A stretch of DNA of 56,113 bases from contig CALDUB010000201.1 of NCBI GenBank assembly GCA_937923465.1, positions 1 to 56,113 of the forward strand, read 5' to 3'. The DNA is from an uncultured Saprospiraceae bacterium. GTDB taxonomy: Bacteria > Bacteroidota > Bacteroidia > Chitinophagales > Saprospiraceae. Below the pieces are notes generated by a model. It ran no database searches, was not told where the DNA came from, and saw nothing but the letters and a program-made list of their open reading frames with translations. Below, piece by piece: positions 7,335 to 25,986 of this stretch (positions are counted from its first letter, which is position 1; every line of letters begins with the position of its first letter). Made by a program: the position numbers and the translations under genes.

Positions 7335-10300
7335 TTAAATTCGAAAAACTGTGAATGCCCGGCTTATAGTTCTTTGCCCGGCAATCTCTATAGAGATGTA
7401 ATAAATACCATCTTGTAAGTCTGACACATCAATTTCCTCAGGTTCACTCGAAAGACTGTTTACGACGGATGCTCTTATAAGTTGTGCAAAGGTATTATAA
7501 ATTTTCACATGTGCGGTCTGTCCAGCGTATTTTTGTAAAGGTAAATACAAATTTTGTGAAGAAGGGTTTGGATAAGGGATGAATGCATCCAAATCTATAG
7601 CAAAAAACACCTTTTTATTCTCACTGTATTTATAGTCTCCATTACTATATATTTGTTTCACACGATAAATGTTCTCTCCGAGAGGTGGATTTTCGTGTTT
7701 TGTTCGATATACATTAGGTAAATATCCGTCTGTAAGACTCTCTTGTTCTTCTAATTCCACAAAATTGATACCATCCAATGAATGTTCAATGATGAAATTT
7801 TGATTTTTATATTCTGTATTTGTTACCCAATGCAATTCTACTTCACGCGCAAAAGGCTGAGCTGTTAAATCCAATATTGGACTAAAACGATTACTTCCAT
7901 TACCACAGCCACTATTATTGATAACGACAGAGTAATCTTCAAATTCTCCTCGAACAACATTAGTACAAGCATTTGAGATGTTGTCTATATTTGTTGCAAC
8001 GCGCATTCCCGTTGTACCTGCTGGCGCAGAAGAAGGGATTTGTACATCAAAATTTATTTCTGTACCAGACACACCGTCAGCTACTAACTCGCCTGTATCT
8101 TCAAAATCGCCGTCTTGATTATAGTCAATCCAAACTTTCCAATTCATATCATAGACTAACCATGAAAAGTCAGGCGTCAAACTTAGTTCGTAAGTATTTC
8201 CTGCGTCTACATTGGCAAATTTATCTGTAAAACGACCATATTGTTCTTTATGGCTGCTATTATCTAAGTCCGCAAACTGAACACGAGAAATCCACTGCCA
8301 CCAAGGTTCTGTTCCTCTAACTGTACAGTAGCTTGGTGCTGTACCTGTTGGTGTCGTTGGGGTAGTCGTTGTACCGCCGCCAGTACCTGCTTCACTACCT
8401 AAAATGATAGTGTAATCTTCTACTTCACCTTCTGCATAAGAATAGCAGGGCGCGGGGAAACTACCACCTCGCAATGCAATCCTCATACGGGTAGCACCTA
8501 GCTCTACGTTGGCAGGAACTTCAAAAAAGGCATTCACTGTAGTATTGCTATTTTTAAAGATAATTAACTCTCTATCATCATTAAAATCTCCGTCTCGATT
8601 ATAGTCAATCCAACCTACCCAGTTATTCATAACCGCTTCATTTCCAGGAGTTAAATTTGCTATGTAAACACTACCTGGCGCAAGAGTTGCGGACTGTGAA
8701 GTAAAGTCGGCATAGCCTTCTTTTGCGGAGCTATTAGATAAGTTTTCTAATCCTATACTACTAATCCAGAAATTATTTGGATTATCTCCGCGCATCTCAC
8801 AATAGTCCGTTGGTGCATCTGATACAGGTGTATCTTGCTCTATTATTTCTTTAACAATCGCATTACTTATGCCTTCAAAATTATCACAGTTTGCGCGGCG
8901 TGCCAGACGTCGGAAATAAGTCGTCTCGCTTAAAAATGGAGGGTCAAAAGTAGCTGCATTTGCATTCGGAATATTTGTCCAAGCAGCTGATAATGAAGGC
9001 GCAGATTGCCATTGATATTCTAAATTTCCTGTTCCGCCTGTTGGCAAAGCATTATTACCTAAAATATTAGCATTAAAAGCTTCGCAATTGCTTTCATCAC
9101 CATTAATTTCTCCTCCAGATGTTACATTGTCACACGAATTTGCTGTAGGAGGATTGCTGATATAGATGCTGACTTGATTAGAAGGAAGATTAGAATTTCC
9201 TGCAATATCTATTGCTTGTGCAAAAGGTAAATTAACGCGCACATTACCAACCGCAAGAGGAGTAACATTCAGTATATAATTTGCGCCATTACCGCTGAAT
9301 GAAGCTACAGTACCATTGATGACTGAAAAGTCATTTGCCGTTAAGCCAGTAACAATTTCACTGAAGTTAACTGAAATCTGTAAACTACCATCAGGGTTAA
9401 AGCCTATAAAATTCAATTGAGTACTTGGCAGAGTCGTATCTGTACTTTGTCCCTGAGCTTCGACTTCTACATACATATAGTCTGAAATTTCGTGAAAAAT
9501 TCCGTCATTCATTAATGTACCATAATCATAAGCAGTGAATTTCATTAAATAAACACCTGGAGTATCAAATTGAGCAGTAGTATTAGCGATATTCTCATTA
9601 CTAAAAGAGACATTACCGTTAGTTGGAGCATTTACAACATCCCATTTGACAGGGAAACTAGAATTGATTGCTCCATTTTGAAATATTTGCCCATTTAAAT
9701 TTAATGTCGTATTCGTCGCGATTTCTCTATCATTTCCAGCTTCTGGCCAATATCCTGTGTTGATGTGATAAGGAGCTTGGACAGTCGCAGGAAACTCATG
9801 GCGCCATAAATTGAAGCGTCCGTCCCAATATTCTGTTGGGTGATTATGACCTAAGTCGCGTGCATGAATAATAATTTTTTTGCCAGACAATTCGTTCAGA
9901 GCTGCAAAACTTGTCGCTGCAGGAGTCACGTCATCTGCATAGCTAACTACAGCCAAGGTAGGACCCGTGTATCTGCGCGCAAAGTATGCCGCGTCATAGT
10001 AACGAGACGCAGAGAGCGTCTGTTGGTAGTGGGTTGCTTCGTTTACTAAATAATCAGAACGTTGCACATAATAAGGAAAACCACTTGCTGTACCTTGGTC
10101 ATAAGCTGCATGTCTACACATCGCAGGATTACTAATAGATAGGGACTTGATGCGGTCATCTAGTCCTGCTGCAATGAGAGCTAGACCTCCACCTTGGCTT
10201 ACACCTGTCACACCAATATTTTGTCCATCAAAATCAGACCTTGTGTACAAATAGTCAATCATTCTTAGCGTACCCAAAATAGCATAACGATAATAGTAAT

Positions 10301-11024
10301 TGTTTCTATCATTGATAATATTTGGCTCGTAAGCAAGAGGGTCTTGTGCATCTGGCTCGGCATTATGAATAGAAATAGAGACAGAAAGAACTTTTGCCCG
10401 ATTAGCTATAAAGTCTTGCGGACTAGCTGTATTCGCATCGCTGCTATAAGGAGGAAGAGTAATAATCGCAGGAAAATTACCGCCACCATTAGGCACACTG
10501 ATGTAAGCGTAAAGGCGTCGATTGTCAACATTTGCTAAGCTGAGGCGATAGTTCGTCACTTCCGAGTCACCTGATAGGTAAGTTAACTGAGGGTCAAGAG
10601 GAATCGCCGCAGATATGTTTTTTTGATTATTCCAAAATTGGTCAAAATCAGCAGGCTCATCGCTAAATAGTTCGATATTTTCACTTTCAAAAACGGCTGC
10701 TGCAGTTTTTGTCACTCCATTCAGACTAAGTTCACACAATATAACTTCCGCACTCGTTCCTTGAAAAGGAATAGAGGTTGGAACATTTGCAATCACAGAA
10801 ATACTACCAGTTGTAATAGCAGGTGTGATATTGTCGTATTTTATTTTATAAGTTGCGGTTCCACTTTGTGTAGATATCAGAACGAATTCTGCCGTTTCTC
10901 CTATACTATAATTTGCTTTTGTGCGGTCTGCTTTTAGACTAAATTGAGCAAAAATAGAAACAGTTAAAAATAAAAAAGCAAAACAGAGTAACCCCCTCAA
11001 ATGGTGTTGAGTGTTGAAGAACAT
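7335..11024 (-). CDS. T9SS-secreted multidomain protein. It has an N-terminal acetyl-xylan-esterase/CE7-like alpha/beta hydrolase, Ig-like modules, two GEVED domains, an FN3-like pre-CTD module and a T9SS C-terminal sorting domain.
   Basis: ORF track 7335..11051. Likely start is ATG 11024 (MFFNTQHHLRGLLCFAFLFLTVSIFAQ). The nucleophile elbow is GVTGVSQGGGLAL. GEVED motifs are GEVEDYTIILG and GEFEDYSVVINN. The CTD reads YPNPSSQNLYLPL...GIYYISIEIAGQRTISRAFTVFRI. Confidence 0.85.
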   Translation of the reverse strand: MFFNTQHHLRGLLCFAFLFLTVSIFAQFSLKADRTKANYSIGETAEFVLISTQSGTATYKIKYDNITPAITTGSISVIANVPTSIPFQGTSAEVILCELSLNGVTKTAAAVFESENIELFSDEPADFDQFWNNQKNISAAIPLDPQLTYLSGDSEVTNYRLSLANVDNRRLYAYISVPNGGGNFPAIITLPPYSSDANTASPQDFIANRAKVLSVSISIHNAEPDAQDPLAYEPNIINDRNNYYYRYAILGTLRMIDYLYTRSDFDGQNIGVTGVSQGGGLALIAAGLDDRIKSLSISNPAMCRHAAYDQGTASGFPYYVQRSDYLVNEATHYQQTLSASRYYDAAYFARRYTGPTLAVVSYADDVTPAATSFAALNELSGKKIIIHARDLGHNHPTEYWDGRFNLWRHEFPATVQAPYHINTGYWPEAGNDREIATNTTLNLNGQIFQNGAINSSFPVKWDVVNAPTNGNVSFSNENIANTTAQFDTPGVYLMKFTAYDYGTLMNDGIFHEISDYMYVEVEAQGQSTDTTLPSTQLNFIGFNPDGSLQISVNFSEIVTGLTANDFSVINGTVASFSGNGANYILNVTPLAVGNVRVNLPFAQAIDIAGNSNLPSNQVSIYISNPPTANSCDNVTSGGEINGDESNCEAFNANILGNNALPTGGTGNLEYQWQSAPSLSAAWTNIPNANAATFDPPFLSETTYFRRLARRANCDNFEGISNAIVKEIIEQDTPVSDAPTDYCEMRGDNPNNFWISSIGLENLSNSSAKEGYADFTSQSATLAPGSVYIANLTPGNEAVMNNWVGWIDYNRDGDFNDDRELIIFKNSNTTVNAFFEVPANVELGATRMRIALRGGSFPAPCYSYAEGEVEDYTIILGSEAGTGGGTTTTPTTPTGTAPSYCTVRGTEPWWQWISRVQFADLDNSSHKEQYGRFTDKFANVDAGNTYELSLTPDFSWLVYDMNWKVWIDYNQDGDFEDTGELVADGVSGTEINFDVQIPSSAPAGTTGMRVATNIDNISNACTNVVRGEFEDYSVVINNSGCGNGSNRFSPILDLTAQPFAREVELHWVTNTEYKNQNFIIEHSLDGINFVELEEQESLTDGYLPNVYRTKHENPPLGENIYRVKQIYSNGDYKYSENKKVFFAIDLDAFIPYPNPSSQNLYLPLQKYAGQTAHVKIYNTFAQLIRASVVNSLSSEPEEIDVSDLQDGIYYISIEIAGQRTISRAFTVFRI

Positions 11025-11307
11025 AGTCGTTGTTTTTTGCTGACACAACATAGATGTACTTAACGCCTATATCGTACTAACATTTAAAATTGAATCTAAC
11101 TAAAGAAAGGGGGGAGGCTCTTTAATCTTTAAGTAACGTGAGTCTGAAAATAAAGGGGGGAATGTTTTGAGAGTGGAGGGGATTTCTCAAAGCAATAGAT
11201 TTATTGTATTCAAACAAATCTATTAATTAGTAAAAATAATGAATTGTTGTCCAAGAGTCTTATTTTTGAGAAAATTTTATCAAAAATACATATAAACAGT
11301 GAGTGTA

Positions 11308-11847
11308 ATGGACATGAAAACTCAATTATTGGTAGAGCATTCAAGAGCTAATGCTGATTTGATAAAGGAATGGGTCGGCACAGATGAAAGTCGTTTTGCT
11401 CTATTAGTTAGTCTATTTTTAGAAAATGAATATAGAGTTTCACAGCGCGCTGCTATGGTCTTGGGACACATTCATGACACACATCCACACTTGTTACAGC
11501 CATTCTTGCCACAGGTAATTCAGCACTTACATAAACCTGACATTCATGATGCAGTGAAACGCAATATCGTTCGTATTTTGCAAAATGTAGAAATTCCAGA
11601 AGAACATTATGGAGAAGTAGCAGATGTCTGTTTTACATGGTTAGAAGACCCCAACGTAGCCGTAGCTATCCGAGTCTTTTCTATGTCTGTATTATGGAAT
11701 ATTTGTCAAAAAGAACCAGAGTTAATGCCAGAATTGAGAGCAACTATAGAAGATTGGATAGACTATAGTTCGACTGGATTTAAAAGCCGAGGGAATAAAG
11801 TGTTAAAAATGATAACAAAGTATGAAAATCAGAATAGGGTACGATGA
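11308..11847 (+). CDS. Hypothetical all-helical protein, possibly a HEAT/ARM-like repeat fold
   Basis: ORF track 11299..11847 (GTG start); the first ATG is at 11308. It has no signal peptide and shows a helix-rich periodicity (LLQPFLPQVIQHLHKPDIHDAVKRNIVRILQNV). I recognise no family motif. Confidence 0.55.
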   Translation: MDMKTQLLVEHSRANADLIKEWVGTDESRFALLVSLFLENEYRVSQRAAMVLGHIHDTHPHLLQPFLPQVIQHLHKPDIHDAVKRNIVRILQNVEIPEEHYGEVADVCFTWLEDPNVAVAIRVFSMSVLWNICQKEPELMPELRATIEDWIDYSSTGFKSRGNKVLKMITKYENQNRVR

Positions 11848-12515
11848 ATCCCCTAGAAAAGGTGACTTTTACGATTTCTAACTGAAAAAGATTGAAATTA
11901 TTGCAAGTTTTTGAATTGAATTAAGTTTCTTTGCATCCTTATACGAGACAACTGGTTTTTTTGTTATATGTTGTCTTAACATTTTGTTAGAGAATCTACC
12001 AATTCATACATCTTGAGAAAAATCGTAATTCTGCAATGTCAGCCGGCTGACTTATAGCTACTGAAAGAACAATACTTCTTATAGTCAGGATTTCGAAAAA
12101 TACACATCACACCCTTTAATCATCACAAAGAAATTTTTCTTTTAGAATGCTGGTATTCAGTGTTTTATGAGAAATTTGTTGAACAGTAATATTATCAATT
12201 TGAGAATTGAATAACTTTATTGCTAAAACAGAAACCTGATTATTCAAATATTTCGGTGCAAAAAAAAGTGCTTGAAACTCTAATTTTGAGCAATGGAAAG
12301 GAAATAGGGCTGAAAATGTCCGAAGCCTACCGTTTTTTGCAGAGATTCAATCATGGTTGGTCAGTTTGCTGACATGACAGGTTGAATCGTTACAACGAAG
12401 CATTTAATAATTATTAATATTGCACGTTTTTACCCCTGCCGGGTGAAAATTTTGGACCATAATATTTTAGGCTTGATTATTCTCAAAAACAAGCCTATTC
12501 ATAAAATCGGACTTT

Positions 12516-15500
12516 ATGGCACGTTATCTACTTATTTTTTCTTTTTTACTAATGGGACTGGTGTCTGCTACCGCTCAGTCCGCCCTGTCGGGTAAAGTAA
12601 CCGACGCTGATACGGGAGAACCAGTTCTTTTCGGTGATGTAGTAGTTTATCGGAACGGTGCTCTCATCACAGGAGAGCAAACTGACTTTGATGGAAATTA
12701 CATTATTTCTCCAATCGACCCAGGTACTTATGAAATTGTTTTCAAGTACGTTGGTTATGATGATGTGAAATACGATGGAGTTTTAATCAATGCTGATAAG
12801 GAAACAAACTTAGATGCTGTAATGGCATCAGGAGTTACTCTTGAAGGAGCTGTAGTCATTGAGTACAAGATTCCTTTAATTGAACAAGACAACACCACAC
12901 AAGGTGCGTCTTTAACGAGTAAGGATATTGCTAATCTTCCTTCTAAGAACATTAACGGTATTATCTCGCAAGTAGCGGGTGCTGGTTCTGCGGATGAGGG
13001 AGACGCGGTATCTATTCGTGGTTCTCGTTCGGATGGTACTTACTACTACATTGACGGTATCCGTGTATCTGGTAACTTGATTCCTCAGTCAGAGATTGAG
13101 CAACTACAGGTTATCACAGGTGGTATCGGTGCAAAGTATGGTGATGTAACGGGTGGAGTTATCTCTATCACGACTAAAGGTCCTTCTGCCAAGTTTGGTG
13201 GTGGATTTGATGCGGAGACGTCAAGATACTTAGACCCTTATGGCTACAACTTGGTATCTGCATATTTAAACGGTCCTATTATTAAGACTAGCGAGGGTAA
13301 TGCATTATTGGGTTACCGTATCTCTGGTCAGTACCGTTACTTAGAAGATGATGACCCGTCTGCGGTTGACATTTTCCGTGTTAATGATGAGGCTTTGGCT
13401 AGATTGGAGCAAAGACCAACTTACGTTGGTGGTGCTACAGCTGATTTCTTAACAGAAGACGATGTAGATGTTTTAGATGTTCAGCCATTTGAGCAAAACG
13501 AACGTTTAGATTTAACAGCAAAAATAGATGCACGTTTGAGTGATGCAATCGATGTTGCAGTGACAGGTACTTACTCTGGTGAGACTGACTTTTTTACTCC
13601 AAACGAAACAAGTGCAACATTGGATAACTGGCGTTTATTGAACGCACATAATAATCCTTTCTTAGACGAAAAGCGTTACCGTGGTAACTTCCGTTTCCGT
13701 CACCGTTTAGGAAAATCTCCTGAGAGTGGCAGTGCAGATGATGCTCAAGCAGCTAAAGGAAATGCTATTCGTAATGCTTCTTATACTATTCAAGTTGGTT
13801 TGGAGCAATATGATTATAAATTAGGAGACCCTAAGCATGGTGAGAATCTATTTGATTATGGTTATGTTGGTTCTTTTGATGCATCTTATGAACCAGAGTT
13901 TGGTTTTTTACGTGATGATGCAGGTGTTCAAATTTTAGATGAATTTGGTAATCCTGTTATTGCACACCAAGGTTATCGTACAGAGGCAGGCGAAGCAGGT
14001 TTCGTACCTGGTGATGTTAATCCTGTCTTAGCAAACTACAACTTTTTCAATACGCCTATCGACGGTCCTCAAGTAGTATTTGGTAACTTAGAAGGTTTGC
14101 CAGCACAAAACGGACGTACTTCGGATTTATTTACGGATAGTTATAACTTCCACACTAACGTGGGTTCTGTTTATAACCGTTACGAAATTCAAGACCAACA
14201 AACGTTGACTGCTCAAGTAAACGCTGGTTTTGATTTATTACCAGGTGGTTCAGAAAACGGTAAGCACAGTATAGAATTAGGTTTCTTGTACGAGCAAAGA
14301 ACTAACCGTTCTTACTTCCTTAGACCACGTGAATTATGGACAGTTGCAAGACAAGCCGCAAATGGTTTTGATGGTGTTGACCAAAGCAATGTTCTTAACG
14401 AAGTTTACGTTAATCCAGATAATTTCAATGATTATTCAAACGAGCCTGTTGCAGGTTGGACACCAGTACAATTATATGGTGCAGGTGGTGGTGTGTTAGG
14501 AAATGATGATTTCTTTGAAAATATTAGAGAGTCTTTAGGTGTAGACAGATTTACAAATGTAAATACAGATGCTTTGACACCAGACCAGTTGTCTTTAGAT
14601 ATGTTCACGGCATCTGAGTTAAATACACAGTCTGCATTACAGTTTGATTACTACGGATATGATTACTTAGGTAATGATTTTGACGGTACATTTGAGGATT
14701 TCTTTACAAGAAAAGACGAAGCAGGAAACTTAACGCGTCCTGTTGCACCTTTCCGTCCTACTTATACTGCTGGATATATTCAAGATAAATTCAAATTTAG
14801 AGATATCATCATTCGTGCAGGTGTACGTGCTGATATTTATGATGCGAATACGAAAGTATTGAAAGACCCTTACTCTTTATATGAGTTGGAGACAGCATCT
14901 TCTTTCCAAGAAAAATTTGGTACAGCTTACCCAAGTACAATTGGTGACGATTTCGCAGTATATGTGGATGGTCAAGAAAGTACTTCAGTAAAAGCATATC
15001 GTGACGGAGATACTTGGTATTTTCCTACAGGTGTACAAGCAAATAGCTCGACAGAAATCTTTGGAGGTACAATAGCTCCGGGTAAGAGAGTAGACCCTGA
15101 TGTGAATATTAGAGATGAAGACTTTGATGTCAATACTTCTTTTGAAGATTACAAACCACAAGTTAACATCATGCCTCGTATCGCATTCTCGTTTCCGATT
15201 AGTGAGGACGCAAACTTTTTTGCGCACTATGATATCTTAGTTCAACGTCCACCAAATAACAACGTGGCAAGTCCTTATGAGTACTTGAACTTTGATAGCC
15301 GTAATACTACAGCAAACTTTCCTAAGGCGAATGCTAACTTGAAGCCAGAGAAAACGATTGACTATGAAGTTGGTTTCCAACAAAAATTGAGTAACAGCTC
15401 TTCTTTGAAGATTGCAGCTTACTACAAGGAGTTGAGAGATATGATTCAGATTCGTATTTACCAAAATATTGAATTTATCTCGAATTACTATTCATATGAT

Positions 15501-16211
15501 AACATAGATTTTGGTACTGTAAAAGGTTTCTCTTTCCAATACGATTTGCGTAGAACAGGTAACGTTAGTTTGAATGCTTCTTATACATTGCAATTCGCAG
15601 ACGGTACAGGTTCTGATGCCAACTCTTCTCGTGGATTAGGTTCTCGTGAAATTTTACGTGCATTGTATCCATTATCATTTGATGAGCGTCACCGTGTTAA
15701 TCTTAACATGGATTACCGTTATTCTTCTGGTAAGAAATATAACGGACCTGTGTTATTTGGAAAGCAAATTTTTGCTAATGCAGGAGCTAACATCCAAGTA
15801 GTAGCTGTATCTGGTCGTCCTTATACTGCAACGACAACTCCTGAGGTATTATCAGGAAGTCAGACAAAAGGTGGATTGAACAGTTCTCGTTTGCCATGGA
15901 GAAATACGGTTAACTTCCGTGTTGACAAAGACTTCTCTTTACGTCAAGGAAAAGAGGGAAGTAATGGATTAAACTTAAACGTTTACTTCCGTGTAGCTAA
16001 CTTGTTAAATACAGGTAACATTATCCAAGTTTATTCTGCTACAGGTTCACCTTCTACGGACGGTTACTTAGAGACGGAGCAAGGACAGGTAAATGCTGCT
16101 GGTTTGGCTGCTACTCAAAGTTATTTGAGTTCTTACCAATGGCGTTTGTTAAACCCGAACTTTTTGAGCTTACCGCGCAGAATGTACATCGGTGCAAGAG
16201 TAGACTTCTAA
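12516..16211 (+). CDS. Oversized TonB-dependent-receptor-like outer-membrane barrel (CarboxypepD_reg domain, plug and a very large barrel)
   Basis: Signal peptide is MARYLLIFSFLLMGLVSATAQ. The CarboxypepD_reg-like stretch is GKVTDADTGEPVLFGDVVVY...GTYEIVFKYVGY. Plug-like stretches are SIRGSRSDGTYYYIDGIRV and GGVISITTKGP. The protein ends ...MYIGARVDF, with a terminal aromatic residue. Confidence 0.85.
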   Translation: MARYLLIFSFLLMGLVSATAQSALSGKVTDADTGEPVLFGDVVVYRNGALITGEQTDFDGNYIISPIDPGTYEIVFKYVGYDDVKYDGVLINADKETNLDAVMASGVTLEGAVVIEYKIPLIEQDNTTQGASLTSKDIANLPSKNINGIISQVAGAGSADEGDAVSIRGSRSDGTYYYIDGIRVSGNLIPQSEIEQLQVITGGIGAKYGDVTGGVISITTKGPSAKFGGGFDAETSRYLDPYGYNLVSAYLNGPIIKTSEGNALLGYRISGQYRYLEDDDPSAVDIFRVNDEALARLEQRPTYVGGATADFLTEDDVDVLDVQPFEQNERLDLTAKIDARLSDAIDVAVTGTYSGETDFFTPNETSATLDNWRLLNAHNNPFLDEKRYRGNFRFRHRLGKSPESGSADDAQAAKGNAIRNASYTIQVGLEQYDYKLGDPKHGENLFDYGYVGSFDASYEPEFGFLRDDAGVQILDEFGNPVIAHQGYRTEAGEAGFVPGDVNPVLANYNFFNTPIDGPQVVFGNLEGLPAQNGRTSDLFTDSYNFHTNVGSVYNRYEIQDQQTLTAQVNAGFDLLPGGSENGKHSIELGFLYEQRTNRSYFLRPRELWTVARQAANGFDGVDQSNVLNEVYVNPDNFNDYSNEPVAGWTPVQLYGAGGGVLGNDDFFENIRESLGVDRFTNVNTDALTPDQLSLDMFTASELNTQSALQFDYYGYDYLGNDFDGTFEDFFTRKDEAGNLTRPVAPFRPTYTAGYIQDKFKFRDIIIRAGVRADIYDANTKVLKDPYSLYELETASSFQEKFGTAYPSTIGDDFAVYVDGQESTSVKAYRDGDTWYFPTGVQANSSTEIFGGTIAPGKRVDPDVNIRDEDFDVNTSFEDYKPQVNIMPRIAFSFPISEDANFFAHYDILVQRPPNNNVASPYEYLNFDSRNTTANFPKANANLKPEKTIDYEVGFQQKLSNSSSLKIAAYYKELRDMIQIRIYQNIEFISNYYSYDNIDFGTVKGFSFQYDLRRTGNVSLNASYTLQFADGTGSDANSSRGLGSREILRALYPLSFDERHRVNLNMDYRYSSGKKYNGPVLFGKQIFANAGANIQVVAVSGRPYTATTTPEVLSGSQTKGGLNSSRLPWRNTVNFRVDKDFSLRQGKEGSNGLNLNVYFRVANLLNTGNIIQVYSATGSPSTDGYLETEQGQVNAAGLAATQSYLSSYQWRLLNPNFLSLPRRMYIGARVDF

Positions 16212-16233
16212 GAAGGACATCTTGATAAGTAGA

Positions 16234-16299
16234 GACTTTAGATGTTAGGTATTAGATTATAAACTCTTTGTTTGTATTTAATGTCTAACATCTAAAATC
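16234..16299. repeat. Intercistronic hairpin built from ttagat/atctaa words
   Basis: The arm gactttagatgttag (16234..16248) pairs with ctaacatctaaaatc (16285..16299), 14 of 15 positions, with a 36-nt loop. The same word recurs at 22918..22941. Confidence 0.5.
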
Positions 16300-16340
16300 C
16301 AAAAAAATATATAATTAGAAATTTTTTAAAACTCGGAGCT

Positions 16341-19300
16341 ATGAATTTTAGAAAGTGGTATTTAATGAGTTTGTTGGCTTTGTTCTTCGCCTTTTCGGCG
16401 AATGCACACATTAGCCCTTTAAACAACTCACCGAATAACTCGACACCGAATGAGGGGAACAATAGTAACCCTGAGAGTGTCGCTTCCTTCCGGAATGACT
16501 GTGTGAAGCCGGTGGAACAAATTGACCAAGATATAAACAACGTACGTGCACGTCTAACGACTGGTGGTGATGTATGGTGGGACCGTTCTGAAGGAAAGTA
16601 TATCGTCCCAAAACCACTAGAAGCTGGTGATAAAGAGGTATCGGCTATCTTTGCTGGTGGTGTATGGTTAGGTGGTATCCAAGAAGGTGGATACAAAGTA
16701 GCTGCACAGCAGTATGGTAATGGTAACGCGGATTCGCGTGACTTCTGGACTGGACCATTGAACCCAAGTGAAGACCCTGTATTACGTGGTACTACAGCAG
16801 ATTCTATTTGTGCTGATTGGGACCGTTTTTGGGTAGTAACTGGTGCTGAGATTGATGAGCATATTGGTAACTACAATACAGCTGTGAGTCAAGGTACAGA
16901 TTATGACCCATCTGATATTCCATTAGGAGTAAAAGGATGGCCTGGTAAAGGAAATCCTTACTTTGTGCAAATCAATAACTTTGATTTGCCTAATACAACG
17001 CAAGGTTTGGGTGCATTTTGGGATGCAGATGGTGACGAAAAGTACAACCCTGCAATGGGAGATTTTCCAATCATTGAGATTGAAGGATGTACAGCTCCTC
17101 AATATCCTGACCAAATGTTTTACTGGATTTACAATGATGCAGGTAATGTTCACACAGAGTCTAACGGAGATAGAATTAGAATGGAAATCCAAGTTCAATC
17201 ATTTGCATACGAAACAAATGATGCCTTGAACGATATGACTTTCCAACGTTATAAGTTGATTAATCGTGCTTCTAACAAAATTGACTCTACATTCTTTGCA
17301 ATGTGGGTAGATGCCGATTTAGGATGTTTTACAGATGATTATATCGGTTGTGATACAACACGTAGTTTAGCGTACTACTACAATGTTGACCCAGAAGATG
17401 GTGATGTTGGTACACAATGTGGTGCTGTTGAAACTTACGGTACAACAATCCCAGCTTTGGGTATTGATTATTTCCGTGGACCAAAAGAGCCTTTATTTGA
17501 TGATAACGGCAATCCAATTGTAGATGAGTTGGGTGACCAAATAGAGAGAGAGTTAGGAATGTCATCATTTACTTACTTCAATAACCCAGGGGAAGGACCA
17601 CCTCCAGGTGCAGAAACTGACCCTAATACTGTTATTGAGTACTACCGTTACATGAGTGGATTGTGGCGTGATGGTTCACCATTTACAGAAGGTGGAAATG
17701 GATACGGAGGTACAACTCCAGTTAAGTACGTATTCCCTGATGCACCAGATAACCAAGCAGGTTGGTCAATGTGTACAGCGGCAGCGGCTAATAACCCTGA
17801 GTATGACCGTCGTACAGTACAAGCATCAGGACCATTTACACTTTTACCAGGTGCGGTAAATGAGTTAATCGTAGGTGCTGTATGGGTGCCAGACTTTGAT
17901 TATCCATGTCCAGATATGTCTCGTTTATTCAATGCAGATGATTTGGCTCAAAACCTTTTCAACTCTTGTTTTGATATTTTGGATGGTCCAGATGCTCCAG
18001 ACATGGACATCATCGAGCTAGACCGTGAAGTTGTATTAGTTTTAACGAATAATGAAGACCCTTTCGTTAATAATAATGCAAACGAATTGTATGCAGAGGT
18101 AGATATTAATGCGCCAATTGGTGCAGATACATTGTATAATTTCCAAGGTTACATTATCTATCAATTGATTGATGGTTTTGTCTCTACAGGTGATTATAAT
18201 GACCCTGATAAAGCGCGTATTATTGGACAAGTAGATGTGAAAGACGATGTTTCTACAATATACAATTGGAGTGCTTTAGCTGATACACCAGACTTTATTG
18301 GCGACCCAGTATTTACTGCAACAAAAGAAGTAGAAGGTGCCAATACAGGTATTCGTCACACATTTGTTGTCAGCAAAGACCAATTTGCAGGTGGTAATAA
18401 TGCGACTTTAGTTAACCATAAGAAGTACTTCTTCTCTGTAGTTGCTTATGGATACAACAACTGGCAAAACTTTGACCCTGCCTTAGGTGAAGGTCAAGCA
18501 TTACCTTTTGTTGCTGGTCGTAAAAATATCAGTACATATATTGGTATTCCACGTCCAATTACAGATAGAAACTTAAACGCTGCTTACGGCGACGGTGCTC
18601 AAATTACACGTCTAGACGGTAAAGGTAATGGAGGTAACTTCTTAGCTGTTACTGACGAAACGTTAGAAAATATCAAAAATTCTGCTTCTTTTGGAATCGA
18701 CGGAGGTCGCTTTGACCAGCCAATCGTTTATCAAGGAGGATTAGGACCAATCGATGTAAAAGTTTACAATCCACTAGAGGTTAAAAATGGTCAATTTAAG
18801 TTGGACATTTTAGATGAAAACTTTGCTAGTGATGGTGATTTGAAGAAATGGAGAATGACAACAGAAGCAAATGTTGTTGTTGATTCTGAAAAAACAATAG
18901 ATGCTCTTAACGAGCAAATTATTGGAGAGTACGGATTTACAGTATCTATTGGTCAGGCTTCAGAGCCAGGCTCACAGACGGAAGATGAAAATGGTGCTAT
19001 TGGCGCAGTAGAAGAGTATACAAACGAAGCAGCAGACCCTTGGTATATTGGTATCCCTAATACAGGAGGTGATCTTATTGGTGGTGCGCAGTTTTTATCT
19101 ATTGGATTAAACTTTGCGGCTCCAAATGATATTGCTACAGAAGACCCGAAAATGTCTCTTGTAAATATTGGAAGTGGATTTTTCCCTTACAAATTAGCAG
19201 AATATCGTACAGCTCCTTACTTATTTGGTAATGTATCTCCAGCATGGCAAAACAACAGTAACAACTTAGTAAGAAATACAACATCTTACGGAGATTTGAA

Positions 19301-20402
19301 TAACGTAAACATTGTCTTTACTTCTGATAAATCTCTTTGGTCTCGTTGTGTTGTTGTTGAAACTGCAGGTTACTCATCAAACGTAATTCCAGCTATTGGC
19401 GGTGCGAATAGTTTAGACCCTCGTGAATCTCCAGGTGTAGGTACAGAAGATAGTAACGGTGACGGTTTACCTGATCCAGACGGTAGCGAAATGGGTATGG
19501 GATATTTCCCAGGTTATGCAGTTGATGTAGAAACAGGACAACGTGTGAATATTTTCTTTGGAGAAAATTCATCTTATGATTGTGCTTCTAACCCAAGCTT
19601 CTGTGATTTCTACACTGATGGCAAGCCAACAGGTGGAGACATGATGTTCAATCCAACTTCTCAGTTCTTTTCTCCATTTGGAGATGCACAAAACCCTACA
19701 GCTTTTAATTTAGTATTGGGTGGTCAGCACTTTGTTTATGTAACTAAGCAACCTTATGACGGATGTGCAGCTATTTATGAAGGCTTGAACGGTAACTCTT
19801 TAGCTAGAGTAAATGCATTGAAAGAAGTTACTTGGACAGGAGTTTCATTCTTGAATCCTGATACGGAAATGAAGTCTTATGCAGACGGTTTGATACCAAC
19901 TGATTTGACTATCAAGTTGCGTGTTAATAGTACTTATGAGTACGAACAAGGAACAGAAGCAGAAGAGGGAACTAACCCTGCATATGAGTTTTCTATCGAC
20001 GGAAAACAAGCAGAAGATTTAGATGCTGTAGGCGTTGAAAATCAATTAGACCTCATCAATGTTGTTCCAAATCCTTACTATGGTTTTTCTGACTACAACG
20101 GTAATAATACTGATAACGTAGTTAAGATTACGAATTTGCCAGCTAAGTGTGTCGTTTCAATATATACTTTGGACGGTAAATTTATCCGTAGATATGATCG
20201 TGATGAAACAGGTCAAGCTCCTGTTGGTTCAGGTATTGCGAAGACTCAAGTAATCACAAGTATCGATTGGAATATGAAGAATAATAAAAATATTCCGATT
20301 GCTGGTGGAGTTTATTTGATTCATATAAATGCAGAAGGATTAGGTGAGCGTGTGCTCAAATGGTTCGGTACTAACCGTGCTCTTGACCCGTCTAACTTAT
20401 AA
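16341..20402 (+). CDS. Large secreted protein of unknown function with a T9SS-type C-terminal beta-sandwich domain
   Basis: Signal peptide is MNFRKWYLMSLLALFFAFSANA, with no lipoprotein Cys. I recognise no catalytic motif. The C-terminus reads VVPNPYYGFSD...CVVSIYTLDGKFIRRYD...GGVYLIHINAEGLGERVLKWFG. Confidence 0.8.
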   Translation: MNFRKWYLMSLLALFFAFSANAHISPLNNSPNNSTPNEGNNSNPESVASFRNDCVKPVEQIDQDINNVRARLTTGGDVWWDRSEGKYIVPKPLEAGDKEVSAIFAGGVWLGGIQEGGYKVAAQQYGNGNADSRDFWTGPLNPSEDPVLRGTTADSICADWDRFWVVTGAEIDEHIGNYNTAVSQGTDYDPSDIPLGVKGWPGKGNPYFVQINNFDLPNTTQGLGAFWDADGDEKYNPAMGDFPIIEIEGCTAPQYPDQMFYWIYNDAGNVHTESNGDRIRMEIQVQSFAYETNDALNDMTFQRYKLINRASNKIDSTFFAMWVDADLGCFTDDYIGCDTTRSLAYYYNVDPEDGDVGTQCGAVETYGTTIPALGIDYFRGPKEPLFDDNGNPIVDELGDQIERELGMSSFTYFNNPGEGPPPGAETDPNTVIEYYRYMSGLWRDGSPFTEGGNGYGGTTPVKYVFPDAPDNQAGWSMCTAAAANNPEYDRRTVQASGPFTLLPGAVNELIVGAVWVPDFDYPCPDMSRLFNADDLAQNLFNSCFDILDGPDAPDMDIIELDREVVLVLTNNEDPFVNNNANELYAEVDINAPIGADTLYNFQGYIIYQLIDGFVSTGDYNDPDKARIIGQVDVKDDVSTIYNWSALADTPDFIGDPVFTATKEVEGANTGIRHTFVVSKDQFAGGNNATLVNHKKYFFSVVAYGYNNWQNFDPALGEGQALPFVAGRKNISTYIGIPRPITDRNLNAAYGDGAQITRLDGKGNGGNFLAVTDETLENIKNSASFGIDGGRFDQPIVYQGGLGPIDVKVYNPLEVKNGQFKLDILDENFASDGDLKKWRMTTEANVVVDSEKTIDALNEQIIGEYGFTVSIGQASEPGSQTEDENGAIGAVEEYTNEAADPWYIGIPNTGGDLIGGAQFLSIGLNFAAPNDIATEDPKMSLVNIGSGFFPYKLAEYRTAPYLFGNVSPAWQNNSNNLVRNTTSYGDLNNVNIVFTSDKSLWSRCVVVETAGYSSNVIPAIGGANSLDPRESPGVGTEDSNGDGLPDPDGSEMGMGYFPGYAVDVETGQRVNIFFGENSSYDCASNPSFCDFYTDGKPTGGDMMFNPTSQFFSPFGDAQNPTAFNLVLGGQHFVYVTKQPYDGCAAIYEGLNGNSLARVNALKEVTWTGVSFLNPDTEMKSYADGLIPTDLTIKLRVNSTYEYEQGTEAEEGTNPAYEFSIDGKQAEDLDAVGVENQLDLINVVPNPYYGFSDYNGNNTDNVVKITNLPAKCVVSIYTLDGKFIRRYDRDETGQAPVGSGIAKTQVITSIDWNMKNNKNIPIAGGVYLIHINAEGLGERVLKWFGTNRALDPSNL

Positions 20403-20436
20403 GCTGTTCGTAAGAACGACTTAGAAATAAATTTTT

Positions 20437-20470
20437 AGCAGATACTCTTTTGCAAAAAGGAGTATCTGCT
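20437..20470 (+). terminator. Hairpin after the 1353-aa gene; a weak terminator with no clean T-run
   Basis: The arm agcagatactc (20437..20447) pairs with gagtatctgct (20460..20470), and the stem extends through tttt/aaaa. Confidence 0.55.
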
Positions 20471-20600
20471 TCATAAATAAAAATAACTGACAAGATATAA
20501 GCTAGAAGTATAGCAGTTGTTAGTGGAGACGTTTTAAAAAAAAAGACGAATTTTCTAACATCCAATATCTTAGTGGTTATATTAAAGTAACAGCATAAAC

Positions 20601-21671
20601 ATGACTAAATATATTTACTTCATTTTGTCTTTTGCATTAATTTGTACGCTGACAGAGACTGCTCAAGCAGGTAACCCTGACCGTCAAGGTGAGGCGGGGG
20701 CATTTGAGTTGTTAATGATGCCATGGGCACGTAGTGCCGGTTTACACAGTATGAACACTTCAAGTGTATCTGGTGTAGACGCTCTTAGATTAAACATCGC
20801 TGGAGCTGCGCGTATCAACAAAACTCAAGTAAACTTGGGGCACGCAAAATACTTGCAAGGCTCAGGCATTGACATGAATTCATTTGGCTTATCTCAACGA
20901 GTAGGTGAGAATGGGGCTATTGCATTCAGTGTTATGTCTTTAGATTTTGGTGATATTCCCGTTACAACAACGAATCAACCAGAAGGAACAGGAGCGACTT
21001 TCTCTCCAAGTTTCATTAATATTGGAGTTGGTTACTCTCACGTTTTCGAAAACAAAGTATCTGTTGGTGTTTTGTTTCGTGGTGTGTCTGAAGGCGTTGC
21101 CGATTTAAGAGCAAGTACATTTGCTGTAGATGCAGGTGTTCAGTACGTAACTGGTGAAGATGACAACTTTAAATTAGGTATCTCTTTACGTAACGTAGGT
21201 GGTACTTTACGTTTCCAAGGTGAAGGTATCGTTCGTAGTGTAGAGATTCCAACTGGAGGCGCTACTTACAACTTAGCTATCGAGGAACGTACAGCAGAGT
21301 TTGAATTACAATCTCAGTTAAATATTGGAGCTTCTTACGACTTCCGTTTCACAGATGTACACCGTGTAACAATACTTGGTAACTTTACTTCGAATGCTTT
21401 CTCTCAAGACCAATTTGGTGCTGGTGTAGAGTATTCGTTAAGAGATATTTTTGTCTTACGTGGTGCATACCGCTACGAGGTAGGTTCTTCAAATATCAAT
21501 GAAGCGCCACTTTATTCAGGTTTAGCAGGAGGTTTTTCTCTTCAATTGCCATTGAATAAAGAAGCTAAAGATGAAGGTCTTTTTGGTACTCAAGTTAGTA
21601 TTGACTATGGTTACCGTGCTTCTAAAATCTTAGGTGGTACGCACAACATTGGTTTGCGTTTTGACCTCTAA
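20601..21671 (+). CDS. PorV/PorQ-like (FadL-fold) outer-membrane beta-barrel protein
   Basis: Signal peptide is MTKYIYFILSFALICTLTETAQA. The N-terminal motif GEAGAFELLMMPWARSAGLHSMNT...ALRLNIAGAA resembles the PorV/PorQ family signature. The protein has beta-strand periodicity and ends HNIGLRFDL. The family call is by eye only. Confidence 0.6.
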   Translation: MTKYIYFILSFALICTLTETAQAGNPDRQGEAGAFELLMMPWARSAGLHSMNTSSVSGVDALRLNIAGAARINKTQVNLGHAKYLQGSGIDMNSFGLSQRVGENGAIAFSVMSLDFGDIPVTTTNQPEGTGATFSPSFINIGVGYSHVFENKVSVGVLFRGVSEGVADLRASTFAVDAGVQYVTGEDDNFKLGISLRNVGGTLRFQGEGIVRSVEIPTGGATYNLAIEERTAEFELQSQLNIGASYDFRFTDVHRVTILGNFTSNAFSQDQFGAGVEYSLRDIFVLRGAYRYEVGSSNINEAPLYSGLAGGFSLQLPLNKEAKDEGLFGTQVSIDYGYRASKILGGTHNIGLRFDL

Positions 21672-21706
21672 GAAACTAGAGTAGAGTATTTATTGCTCTC
21701 TAAATG

Positions 21707-21745
21707 TCGCATATTTTCTTTATGAAAATATGCGGCATTTTTTTT
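21707..21745 (+). terminator. Intrinsic terminator after the PorV-like gene
   Basis: The 12-bp stem tcgcatattttc/gaaaatatgcgg has a 5-nt loop and is followed by a T8 run. Confidence 0.8.
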
Positions 21746-21807
21746 GCAAACAAATTTGTGATATACAATATTAGATTTTTTCTTAAAATGTCTGTATATT
21801 TGACCTT

Positions 21808-23546: not shown

Positions 23547-25055
23547 GTGTCAAAAAAAGTAATAGTAATAGGTTCTGGATTCGCTGGTTTAGCATCAGCA
23601 TGTTGCTTAGCTAAAGAGGGCTATGATGTGACGATATTGGAGAAAAATAGCGTGGCAGGCGGTCGTGCGCGAAAGTTTGAAAAAGACGGATACGTTTTTG
23701 ACATGGGACCGAGTTGGTATTGGATGCCCGATGTATTTGACGACTTTTTTGAACTATTCGGAAAAAAGTCTTCTGACTATTACGATTTGGTACGTTTGGA
23801 CCCTTCTTATCAAGTTATCTTCGAGAAAGATGAGTTTATGCAAGTGCCTGCCAAGTGGGAGGAATTGCTGGCTATGTTTGAGCATTACGAACCTGGCAGT
23901 GGAAAGAAGTTAGAGAAATTTTTGGCAGAGGCAGAATATAAGTATAAAGTAGGTATCGAAGAATTTGTCCACAAACCTGGACATTCTATTTTCGAATTCG
24001 CTGATATGCGTGTAGTTTCCAGTCTATTCAAGCTACAGATGTTTTCTTCTGTATCTTCTCAGATTAGAAAACTCTTCACAAATAAACGTCTAGTTGAGCT
24101 TTTAGAGTTCCCTGTTTTGTTTCTCGGTGCAACTCCTCAAAAAACTCCTGCTCTTTATAGTCTAATGAACTATGCGGATATGGTCGGCGGAACTTGGTAT
24201 CCAATGGGAGGTATGCACAAAATTATAGAAGGCATGGTGAGTCTAGCAGAAGAACTAGGCGTGACAATTCTTTTAAATCAAGAGGTTAGGTCAATTAAAA
24301 CGACTAACGGCACCGCTTCTGAAATCATAACAGATACCAAAACTTATCATCCAGATGTCGTCGTCGGTAGCGCGGATTACCATCATGTTGAGCAGCATCT
24401 TCTAGAAGAGAAAGACCGTCAATACACGGAGGCTTATTGGGACAAACGGACAATGGCGCCTTCGTCATTACTGTTCTATCTAGGAGTCAATAAAAGATTG
24501 AAAAATTTGCGTCACCATAATCTGTTCTTTGATACAGACTTTGAGTTGCACGCACACGAGATTTATACAGAACCAAAATGGCCAACAGAACCATTATTTT
24601 ACGTCTGCGCGCCTTCTATTACAGATGATAGTGTCGCACCAGAAGGTTGTGAAAACGTTTTCGTTTTGATACCTCTAGCACCTGATTTAGAAGATACAGA
24701 AGCATTGCGTGAGCAGTATTTTGATATGGTTATGAAACGCTTAGAAAACCTAACAGGGCAAGAAATTCGTAGTTCTATTACTTACAAACGTTCTTTTGCC
24801 CACAAGGATTTTAAAGAAGACTACCATGCTTATAAAGGAAATGCATACGGTTTGGCGAATACTTTGCTACAAACAGCATTTTTAAAGCCAAAGTTAAAGA
24901 ACCCAAAGGTAGATAATCTCTATTATGCAGGACAATTGACAACTCCTGGGCCAGGTATGCCGCCGTCGTTAATCTCAGGACAAGTAGTGGCTAAGGAGAT
25001 TACAAAGAAATTTCCTGCCCAAAATAAACACGACATTCCTGCTGTAACCATTTAA
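23547..25055 (+). CDS. crtI: Phytoene desaturase
   Basis: It uses a GTG start. The Rossmann motif is KKVIVIGSGFAGLASA. The CrtI-type C-terminal motif is LYYAGQLTTPGPGMPPSLISG. Confidence 0.92.
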   Translation: MSKKVIVIGSGFAGLASACCLAKEGYDVTILEKNSVAGGRARKFEKDGYVFDMGPSWYWMPDVFDDFFELFGKKSSDYYDLVRLDPSYQVIFEKDEFMQVPAKWEELLAMFEHYEPGSGKKLEKFLAEAEYKYKVGIEEFVHKPGHSIFEFADMRVVSSLFKLQMFSSVSSQIRKLFTNKRLVELLEFPVLFLGATPQKTPALYSLMNYADMVGGTWYPMGGMHKIIEGMVSLAEELGVTILLNQEVRSIKTTNGTASEIITDTKTYHPDVVVGSADYHHVEQHLLEEKDRQYTEAYWDKRTMAPSSLLFYLGVNKRLKNLRHHNLFFDTDFELHAHEIYTEPKWPTEPLFYVCAPSITDDSVAPEGCENVFVLIPLAPDLEDTEALREQYFDMVMKRLENLTGQEIRSSITYKRSFAHKDFKEDYHAYKGNAYGLANTLLQTAFLKPKLKNPKVDNLYYAGQLTTPGPGMPPSLISGQVVAKEITKKFPAQNKHDIPAVTI

Positions 25056-25063
25056 AAACAATG

Positions 25064-25102
25064 TGCTTCGATAAATTCGTTGATTGCAAATTTATCGAAG
25101 CA
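25064..25102 (+). promoter_or_regulatory. Perfect 14-bp hairpin in the crtI-crtB intercistronic spacer
   Basis: The arm tgcttcgataaatt (25064..25077) pairs with aatttatcgaagca (25089..25102), with an 11-nt loop and no T-run. Confidence 0.45.
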
Positions 25103-25116
25103 TCAAAACTAATACT

Positions 25117-25953
25117 ATGCTTTCCTTATATAATGAAGTTTGTAATGAATGTAGTAAGTTAATTACTAATCGCTATAGTACCTCTTTTTCTATGGGTATT
25201 AAGGTGTTTGACTCTAAGTATCAGATGCCGATTTATGGAATTTATGGTTTCGTGCGTTTTGCAGACGAAATTGTAGATACTTTTCATGGCTTTGATAAGG
25301 GGGATTTGTTGCGTCGGTTTCGCGAAGATACTTTTACTGCCATTGAAGAAAAAATTAGTTTAAATCCTGTTTTACATTCTTTTCAAGAAGTTGTACACAA
25401 ATATGGTATTGAGCGTGAGTTGATTGATGCTTTTTTGGATAGTATGGAAATGGATTTGTATCATGAACGTTACCACGATAGCTTATATAAGAAGTATATT
25501 TACGGCTCGGCAGAGGTTGTTGGTCTGATGTGCTTGCGTGTCTTTACAAATGGAGATACAGAAGAGTATGAGCGCTTAAAAGCGCCAGCGTGTAGCCTCG
25601 GTTCTGCATTCCAAAAGATAAATTTCTTACGCGATATGAAGAGTGATTTTGATGAGCGTGGACGGGTTTATTTTCCAGGAGTAGATTTTGTCAATTTTAC
25701 GAATGAAGACAAAATTACCATTGAAGCCGACATCAAAAAAGATTTTGATGATGCTTATCAAGGGATTATAAAACTACCAACTGGCGCCAGATTGGGCGTG
25801 ATGTTAGCTTATGTTTACTACACTAAGTTATTTGCTAAAATCAAAAAAGCAACAGCTGCTCATGTAAAAGAGGAGCGCATCAGAGTACCAAATGGACGTA
25901 AAATGACCTTGTTATTTAGTACGGCAGTGAGACATCAACTAAACTTATTATAA
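25117..25953 (+). CDS. crtB: Phytoene synthase
   Basis: ORF track 25084..25953 (TTG start); preferred start is ATG 25117. Squalene/phytoene synthase motifs are YGFVRFADEIVD and NFLRDMKSDFDERGRVYFP. Confidence 0.92.
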   Translation: MLSLYNEVCNECSKLITNRYSTSFSMGIKVFDSKYQMPIYGIYGFVRFADEIVDTFHGFDKGDLLRRFREDTFTAIEEKISLNPVLHSFQEVVHKYGIERELIDAFLDSMEMDLYHERYHDSLYKKYIYGSAEVVGLMCLRVFTNGDTEEYERLKAPACSLGSAFQKINFLRDMKSDFDERGRVYFPGVDFVNFTNEDKITIEADIKKDFDDAYQGIIKLPTGARLGVMLAYVYYTKLFAKIKKATAAHVKEERIRVPNGRKMTLLFSTAVRHQLNLL

Positions 25954-25986
25954 TTTTAGCTGATTGATAAGAAACAACAAATAAAC

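Follow-up and report, generated by a model that had tools for sequence, protein, structure and literature searches.

A conserved trio of outer-membrane genes in Saprospiraceae: a large TonB-dependent transporter, a protein with a T9SS-type tail and a PorV/PorQ-family barrel

Introduction

What do three neighbouring genes for outer-membrane proteins in a Saprospiraceae genome make together? The genes lie on the forward strand of a 56,113-nucleotide (nt) stretch of DNA from an uncultured Saprospiraceae bacterium (contig CALDUB010000201.1), and this whole stretch is the window analysed here. Gene 1 encodes an oversized TonB-dependent transporter of 1231 amino acids (aa), gene 2 a secreted protein of 1353 aa from an unnamed family, and gene 3 a 356-aa barrel of the PorV/PorQ family. 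The gaps between them are 129 nt and 198 nt long, and the coordinates confirm the gene layout given by an initial annotation (Table 1). All three proteins have a type I signal peptide and none has a lipobox cysteine.

We propose that the trio forms one outer-membrane module for nutrient uptake, in which a partner exported by a type IX secretion system (T9SS) works with a TonB-energised importer. This is a tentative proposal, to which we would give slightly less than an even chance. The evidence comes from conserved gene order, from profile searches with each protein and its relatives, and from structure models.

Results

The three genes stay together across families

The synteny scan took one genome per GTDB species and covered 80 loci, 70 of them with enough flanking sequence to be evaluated. 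Gene 1 lies directly upstream of gene 2, and gene 3 directly downstream, in 67 of the 70 evaluable loci, at 41-62% protein identity. The 80 loci belong to Saprospiraceae, to Lewinellaceae or to metagenome-assembled genomes with similar labels; Membranihabitans marinus, Neolewinella antarctica, N. agarilytica and Lewinella sp. JB7 are among the carriers.

A more distant branch, in which gene 2 is 36-41% identical, has the complete trio in the same order at all six loci, with gaps of 9-52 nt. One of these loci is in a complete Cryomorphaceae genome. Carriers were thus found among Saprospiraceae, Lewinellaceae, Cryomorphaceae and metagenome-assembled genomes labelled Chitinophagales/Sphingobacteriales. 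The adjacency of the trio exceeds chance, and the earlier expectation that homologues of all three genes would occur together in other genomes was borne out.

Gene 1 is an oversized TonB-dependent transporter

Gene 1 has the N-terminal domain, plug and terminal aromatic residue that the initial annotation had read in it; the chain ends in ...RVDF. The Pfam CarboxypepD_reg match spans aa 24-103, and a single-sequence search related this N-terminus to PDB entry 6ytc, the N-terminal domain of a TonB-dependent receptor (E 2.6e-3). The short motif ahead of the plug is a putative TonB box, judged by its resemblance to such motifs. Among families scanned at E <= 0.01, neither the PF00593 barrel model in Pfam-A, which several orthologues do match, nor the SusC/RagA signature TIGR04056 in NCBIfam matched gene 1. 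The NCBIfam transporter-barrel matches were weak and confined to aa 929-1071.

The barrel was modelled with AlphaFold2 (AF2) from 67 homologues, covering aa 116-1231, with a predicted local distance difference test score (pLDDT) of 81.4 and a predicted template modelling score (pTM) of 0.80. Foldseek matched this model to PirA, PhuR, FptA, PfeA, HasR, FhuA and BtuB (E 6e-22 to 1e-18), with template modelling (TM) scores of 0.55-0.70 when normalised by target. Judged by these matches rather than by a count of strands, the model appears to have the 22-strand barrel fold. Gene 1 is a real oversized TonB-dependent transporter and is not a SusC.

The protein is much longer than the other receptor noted in the window, as had been pointed out at the start: that receptor, at 39648..42137, has 829 aa and matches CarboxypepD_reg, Plug and TonB_dep_Rec_b-barrel. 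About 400 residues of gene 1 exceed the normal transporter size, and they are placed in several long inter-strand segments. Across 68 orthologues, the conservation of these insertions is mostly 0.64-0.71, with outliers of 0.53 and 0.80, and that of the remaining protein is 0.69. In receptors, loops are as a rule less conserved than this. Because the insertions are about as conserved as the strands, unlike usual receptor loops, they hint at a fixed protein partner or a constrained interface.

Gene 3 is a distinct member of the PorV/PorQ family

Gene 3 contains the N-terminal signature GEAGAFELLMMPWARSAG, from which membership of the PorV/PorQ family had been suggested, and the family model NF033709 agrees with that assignment (117.5 bits against a cut-off of 90). 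The protein scores below the cut-offs of the more specific models: 68.4 bits against 220 for the PorQ equivalog NF033711, 49.7 against 250 for the PorV equivalog NF033710, and 36 against 325 for PorV2. Since both equivalog models failed, gene 3 is neither PorV nor PorQ proper. By its profile scores it is a distinct paralogue within the family, slightly closer to PorQ.

All 28 gene 3 orthologues tested matched the family model, and a profile built from them found the PorV structure of F. johnsoniae, 6h3i_F, at E 4.7e-14. The PorP/SprF model TIGR03519 gave weak matches to 13 of the 28. Single-sequence PDB searches with all three trio proteins gave nothing useful, and only the profiles succeeded.

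The tail of gene 2 is nearest to those of PorZ and PorU

The last 127 residues of gene 2 were scanned on their own. They weakly matched the C-terminal region of the PorZ equivalog NF052228 (model positions 663-743) at E 2.5e-4 and that of the PorU model NF033707 (model positions 1022-1077) at 13 bits. The relationship is much clearer across the family. Of 32 diverse family tails, every one matched the PorZ tail (best E 7.8e-13), 30 matched the sorting-domain model TIGR04183 (best E 2.7e-7) and 28 matched the PorU tail. PF18962 was matched by 5 of 35 family members, and fully canonical type A tails occur in a minority of the family.

Profile comparison gave a similar result. Aligned with hhalign, the tail profile matched a canonical type A tail profile with 98.6% probability and E 1.1e-15, seven of the eight templates being paralogues from the same family. 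Searches of the PDB with the tail as a profile found PorZ (5m11, E 3.3e-3) and PorU (6za2, E 5.5e-3). Several family members, including the Cryomorphaceae trio orthologue, are named as T9SS sorting-domain proteins by NCBI or JGI, and orthologue P0413, which sits within a trio, carries the name T9SS C-terminal target domain protein. At the family level, homology clearly identifies the gene 2 tail as a divergent T9SS type A sorting domain, and by the same profiles its nearest relatives are the tails of PorZ and PorU. The likeness is limited to the tail: no full-length match to PorZ (NF052228) or PorU (NF033707) was found, and 5m11 and 6za2 were not among the top fold matches of the gene 2 body.

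The chain, which reads ...KWFGTNRALDPSNL at its C-terminus, continues past the canonical domain. The hhalign tail alignment stops at ...KWF, and the last 11-14 residues lie beyond it. A loose pattern for the ending of this extension was matched by 357 of 397 full-length family members. Where gene 2 has tandem paralogues, the copy adjoining gene 3 always has the full extension, and it is truncated or altered in four of the five extra copies.

Such extra copies, one or two at a locus, were seen directly after the gene 3 orthologue in Saprospiraceae loci L003:15298-23311, L009, L019 and L031. For one of them, the NCBI annotation reads T9SS type A sorting domain protein.

The body of gene 2 defines a large unnamed family

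As first reported, gene 2 has a Sec signal without a lipobox and no assignable motif over about 1250 aa. The signal peptide would be cleaved between …AFSANA and HISP, and the whole protein had no match in Pfam-A or NCBIfam release 20 at E <= 0.01. No SusD-family match appeared in the Pfam scan, and together with the absence of TIGR04056 from gene 1 this agrees with the initial view that genes 1 and 2 are not a SusC/SusD pair.

The family is large. A 90%-clustered database held at least 2,914 matches, nearly all named 'hypothetical', and among 50%-identity representatives, searched exhaustively, there were 7,041 matches at E <= 1e-3 and 1,532 at E <= 1e-30. Cluster look-ups of distant relatives returned mostly metagenome proteins. 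A Pfam scan of 35 diverse relatives matched tail domains alone (FlgD_ig and Por_Secre_tail). The length of gene 2 is tightly fixed, identity is about 50% across families, and there is no repeat architecture.

An AF2 model of aa 47-1246, which leaves out the tail, had a pLDDT of 80.4 and a pTM of 0.54 and is mostly beta, with FN3-like modules. Its PDB matches were weak (TM 0.10-0.16) and fell on the beta-supersandwich parts of GH94, GH65, GH116 and GH161. Weak matches in BFVD were FN3-like (phage FN3 proteins) and GH65-like. At TM scores of 0.10-0.16 these folds were rejected as a clue to function.

Two motifs stand out in the body. The first is an Asp-rich motif in which D324, D326, G328, D332 and D333 are invariant or nearly so (alignments A1 and A5), and its residues make it a possible candidate metal site. 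The second is the best-conserved motif of the body, with F1056, P1057, G1058, Y1059, G1066, R1068 and E1075 invariant in 35 diverse members. There are also many conserved cysteines. The motifs and cysteines would suit an extracellular protein with a defined site.

Table 1. Features of the trio locus, in window coordinates.
Feature	Coordinates	Strand	Basis
Gene 1, oversized transporter of the TonB-dependent type, 1231 aa; signal peptide …SATA|QS	12516..16211	+	Open reading frame (ORF), Pfam, AF2/Foldseek
CarboxypepD_reg-like N-terminal domain, aa 24-114	12585..12857	+	PF13620 46.3 bits, PF13715 42.9 bits
TonB-box-like motif GAVVIEY, aa 111-117	12846..12866	+	Consensus of 68 homologues is LDEVVVT
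Plug domain, aa 130-215	12903..13160	+	PF07715 35.6 bits, cut-off 23.9
Gene 1 beta-barrel with long conserved inter-strand insertions and terminal F	13197..16208	+	AF2 secondary structure
Inverted repeat in gene 1-gene 2 gap (tttagatgttag … ctaacatctaaa)	16237..16296	+	Read from sequence
Gene 2, 1353-aa secreted protein of an unnamed family	16341..20402	+	ORF; no Pfam/NCBIfam match
Gene 2 type I signal peptide, no lipobox, MNFRKWYLMSLLALFFAFSANA|HISP	16341..16406	+	Sequence
Asp-rich motif WVDADLGCFTDDYIGCD, aa 322-338; family WVD.DLG...DDY.GCD	17304..17354	+	Alignments A1, A5
Best-conserved body motif FPGYAVDVETGQRVNIFFGENS, aa 1056-1077; family FPGYA.DVETG.R.N..FGE.S	19506..19571	+	35 members
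Divergent T9SS type A sorting domain, aa 1241-1342	20061..20366	+	Tail and family profile matches
C-terminal extension GTNRALDPSNL past the canonical domain end; family G..R..D...F/L-COOH	20367..20399	+	Alignment A3
10-bp inverted repeat in gene 2-gene 3 gap (gcagatactc … gagtatctgc)	20438..20469	+	Read from sequence
Gene 3, PorV/PorQ-family barrel, 356 aa; signal peptide …ETAQA|GNPD	20601..21671	+	NF033709
Terminator-like hairpin, 17 pairs and T-run	21702..21746	+	Consensus match; 31 nt past gene 3 stop

Surroundings of the trio

The window is ordinary chromosome, and its closest public genome is that of an uncultured Saprospiraceae bacterium, with 85-92% protein identity. On the 3' side of the trio are greA, a HIT-family gene, a rhodanese gene and carotenoid genes. 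The hairpin after gene 3, at 21702-21740, is the sole strong terminator-like site found in a scan of the window, and none lies between the trio genes. Because this hairpin and its T-run match the terminator-like consensus, they suggest that the transcription unit ends after gene 3.

Each of the two gaps inside the trio holds an inverted repeat, with a stem of 12 bp in the first and 10 bp in the second. Neither has a T-run, so the repeat between genes 2 and 3 is not a typical terminator. The two repeats may serve for processing or attenuation and thereby set the ratios of the subunits. Upstream of gene 1 no Rfam element was matched, either at gathering thresholds or at E <= 1. A sigma-70 promoter scan performed at chance (37 found against 36 expected); this consensus does not apply to Bacteroidota.

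Two canonical cargo genes in the window show that the organism uses the T9SS. One (7335..11051, minus strand) lies upstream of the trio region in divergent orientation and encodes a 1238-aa secreted protein, whose canonical T9SS type A sorting domain (43 bits) accompanies an acetyl-xylan-esterase/S9-like hydrolase domain, a Big_12 domain and two GEVED domains. The other (45368..47035, plus strand) encodes a second ordinary cargo of 555 aa, in which an LVIVD repeat is combined with a canonical T9SS sorting domain (31.6 bits).

Between the first of these genes and the trio are a 182-aa ORF with a GTG start and no family match (11299..11847, plus strand) and a 668-nt non-coding stretch directly ahead of gene 1 (11848..12515). 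The upstream neighbour varies among genomes and is often a 2-hydroxyacid dehydrogenase elsewhere. The carotenoid cluster (23547..27135, plus strand) is directly 3' of greA, HIT and rhodanese and encodes a phytoene desaturase-like protein, a phytoene synthase and a lycopene cyclase. Between the carotenoid and polyprenyl synthase genes, in a chromosomal and housekeeping context, is a 362-aa ORF (27334..28422, plus strand) with a Rep3_C domain (plasmid initiator Rep, WH2; E 1.4e-10). The sole Pfam match of a 1762-aa ORF on the minus strand (31752..37040) is a C-terminal GEVED domain at aa 1661-1744.

Discussion

A possible uptake module with a T9SS-exported partner

The results show the domain identities, the family-level homology of the gene 2 tail and the synteny of the trio, and the proposal that follows builds on them. 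TonB-dependent transporters of Bacteroidota usually work with a surface partner encoded immediately downstream. An uptake complex is favoured for the trio because gene 1 keeps the parts of an importer, has a susC-like position and has conserved long loops. The parts in question are the plug, the TonB-box-like motif, the confidently modelled barrel and the terminal phenylalanine.

In the proposed mechanism, the product of gene 2 would be exported by the Sec pathway and would then cross the outer membrane through the T9SS, using its divergent type A C-terminal domain (CTD). The tail would probably not be cleaved, like those of PorZ and PorU, and would dock on gene 3, its dedicated neighbouring PorV/PorQ paralogue, with the 11-residue extension as the determinant. 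Docking would fix the 140-kDa protein to the cell surface without a lipid anchor. The long conserved loops of gene 1 would contact gene 2, which would capture or process a ligand, and gene 1 would import that ligand with TonB energy. We infer that the tail is retained, that it docks on gene 3, that gene 2 contacts gene 1, that transport is inward and that there is a ligand. If this is right, the module would be a functional counterpart of SusC/SusD whose surface partner is delivered by the T9SS.

The docking step has a precedent. PorU and PorZ are T9SS substrates whose tails are not removed and stay bound to PorV and PorQ, and it has been proposed that cognate PorV-like barrels shield such tails from cleavage (PMC10202324). 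We suspect that gene 2 is held on gene 3 because its tail is nearest to those of PorZ and PorU, carries a conserved extension and has its own PorV/PorQ paralogue next to it. The initial annotation had described gene 3 as a carrier for the cargo. The family assignment stands; the shuttle role fits less well, because the nearest tails, PorZ and PorU, are retained on PorQ and PorV, and this makes a permanent anchor the more plausible role of gene 3.

Several observations weigh against the uptake proposal. The single gene 2 tail scored 18.6 bits with TIGR04183, below the cut-off of 23, and did not match PF18962 even at E <= 10, so the sorting domain that had been suspected at the outset falls under the curated cut-offs in this one sequence and is recovered at the family level (30 of 32 tails with TIGR04183, and the hhalign result). 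In 3 of the 70 loci gene 2 has no adjoining gene 3 and still has the extended tail. Near the trio there is no regulator, enzyme or ABC importer that would give a clue to the ligand; the searches with gene 2 found no binding or catalytic fold, and there is no riboswitch. The contacts between the proteins of the module are predicted from gene order and sequence. Synteny with the trio is no weaker for greA and HIT, or for ruvC in the distant branch, than the synteny among the three genes themselves. This weakens the link of gene 1 to genes 2 and 3, since gene order here may just be stable, and the physical association of gene 1 with the other two, as initially pictured, is left with gene order as its support. 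Finally, the single-copy, housekeeping setting and the identity of about 50% across families would fit envelope machinery equally well.

Other explanations of the trio

The last point leads to a different explanation. Genes 2 and 3 could be a third pair of the PorZ/PorQ or PorU/PorV type, that is, a T9SS accessory or surface biogenesis complex that might process cargo, attach it or deliver glycolipid to it, with gene 1 as a structural or transport hub. We consider this unlikely, and several findings speak for it: the closeness of the gene 2 tail to PorZ and PorU, the higher score of gene 3 on the PorQ model than on the PorV model, and a strongly conserved, single-copy place in the core genome beside greA, HIT and ruvC, which is typical of machinery. 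It does less well with the gene 2 body, which is unlike PorZ or PorU outside the tail region, and with gene 1, which retains its plug and TonB-box-like motif.

The equal synteny of greA and HIT, whose functions are presumably unrelated, raises the prospect that gene 1 is simply independent, a large ordinary TonB-dependent transporter kept beside a cargo/carrier pair by stable gene order. Its homologues are annotated plainly as TonB-dependent receptors, and there are hairpins in both intergenic gaps of the window. Against this, genes 1 and 2 are just 9-52 nt apart in distant lineages, the only terminator-like site comes after gene 3 and not between the genes, the long loops are unusually conserved, and no other candidate partner gene adjoins gene 1. 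An independent gene 1 seems quite unlikely to us.

The initial annotation had named an appendage anchor as one alternative. On that view gene 2 would serve gliding, attachment or predation as a surface adhesin or a subunit of an appendage, anchored by gene 3 on a base formed by gene 1, and we would give this view little credence. In its favour, gene 2 is large and mostly beta, has FN3-like modules and many conserved cysteines, and T9SS substrates with dedicated carrier barrels are known (SprB/SprF and GhpA/GhpB). Yet gene 2 has no repeat architecture, and its fixed length and its conservation across families are unlike those of fast-evolving adhesins; nor does a plugged TonB-dependent barrel have a known role as the base of an appendage. 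The grappling hooks of Aureispira, which had been mentioned as a parallel, rely on the type B partners PorP and PorE: their protein GhpA, 5,898 aa long and built of Ig repeats, is paired with homologues of PorP and PorE. The analogy was rejected, as tail type, barrel family and cargo architecture all differ.

Least credible of all is a TonB-dependent export or release of gene 2 by gene 1, such as Myxococcus Oar reportedly provides for PopC: gene 1 and Oar have in common an N-terminal CarboxypepD_reg domain and large size, but the Pfam-A scan of gene 1 at E <= 0.01 matched only CarboxypepD_reg, CarbopepD_reg_2 and Plug and no Oar-like barrel (a model that we take to be among the families scanned), and the sorting domain and PorV-like partner of gene 2 already explain its export.

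Comparison with known systems

The proposed uptake module resembles SusC/SusD (RagA/RagB) in the N-terminal CarboxypepD_reg-like domain, putative TonB box and plug of the transporter, in the surface partner gene immediately downstream on the same strand, and in the large extracellular regions of the barrel. It differs in that gene 1 lacks the SusC/RagA signature and has classical siderophore and haem transporters as its nearest folds. SusD is a lipoprotein of about 500 aa, whereas gene 2 is a 1353-aa non-lipoprotein with a T9SS tail, and the trio adds a PorV/PorQ-like barrel gene, which adjoins in 67 of 70 loci.

With PorZ-PorQ and PorU-PorV of Porphyromonas gingivalis, the trio would have in common a retained substrate CTD that docks on a PorV/PorQ-family barrel (PMC10202324); these are the tails most similar to that of gene 2, and gene 3 is in the same barrel family as their partners. 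The differences are that the body of gene 2 is related neither to PorZ, with its beta-propellers, nor to the C25-type peptidase PorU, that gene 3 fails both equivalogs, that the gene 2 tail has an extra conserved extension, and that the pair is linked to a gene for a TonB-dependent transporter.

The type B systems (SprB/SprF, and GhpA/GhpB/GhpC of Aureispira) also have a large T9SS cargo beside its own carrier or anchor barrel. Gene 2, however, has a type A-like tail and is no Ig-repeat filament, gene 3 belongs to PorV/PorQ and not to PorP/SprF, and the cluster includes a TonB-dependent transporter. In HasR/HasA and TbpA/TbpB, a dedicated extracellular protein supplies the ligand to a plugged 22-strand barrel, and HasR is among the structural matches of gene 1. 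The partners there are small hemophores or lipoproteins exported by a type I or lipoprotein pathway, and there is no PorV-like anchor.

A search of the literature on PorV-like and PorV2 proteins, on the T9SS together with TonB-dependent transporters, and on the BAM complexes of Bacteroidota found no description of the trio. BamG/FadL and BamP of the Bacteroidota BAM complexes are unrelated to it. Each part of the trio is of a known kind: gene 1 is a TonB-dependent transporter, the gene 2 tail a type A sorting domain and gene 3 a PorV/PorQ barrel. Their combination appears to be new and is undescribed in the literature searched.

Implications

T9SS cargo is thought to be either released or covalently linked to lipopolysaccharide. 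PorU and PorZ are the only T9SS substrates known to be kept on PorV/PorQ barrels. Altogether, the trio may represent a hitherto unrecognised class of TonB-dependent uptake. Its extracellular ligand-handling subunit would be exported by the T9SS, and an uncleaved sorting domain with its extension would hold it noncovalently to a PorV/PorQ paralogue of its own, beside the transporter. Saprospiraceae, Lewinellaceae, Cryomorphaceae and lineages related to them would carry this machinery as a core module. We offer this broader claim as a doubtful but possible one, well short of an even chance.

If it is true, there would be a third such pair, widespread and coupled to a TonB-dependent transporter, which would make the docking of tails on PorV/PorQ barrels a general way of building surface complexes. 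It would also connect two hallmark outer-membrane systems of Bacteroidota, the T9SS and TonB-dependent uptake. Gene 2 itself belongs to a large unnamed family, with more than 1,500 clusters at 50% identity and no Pfam or NCBIfam model or convincing fold match, and the family counts as a core gene among environmental polymer degraders that are abundant, for example the Saprospiraceae of activated sludge and marine particles.

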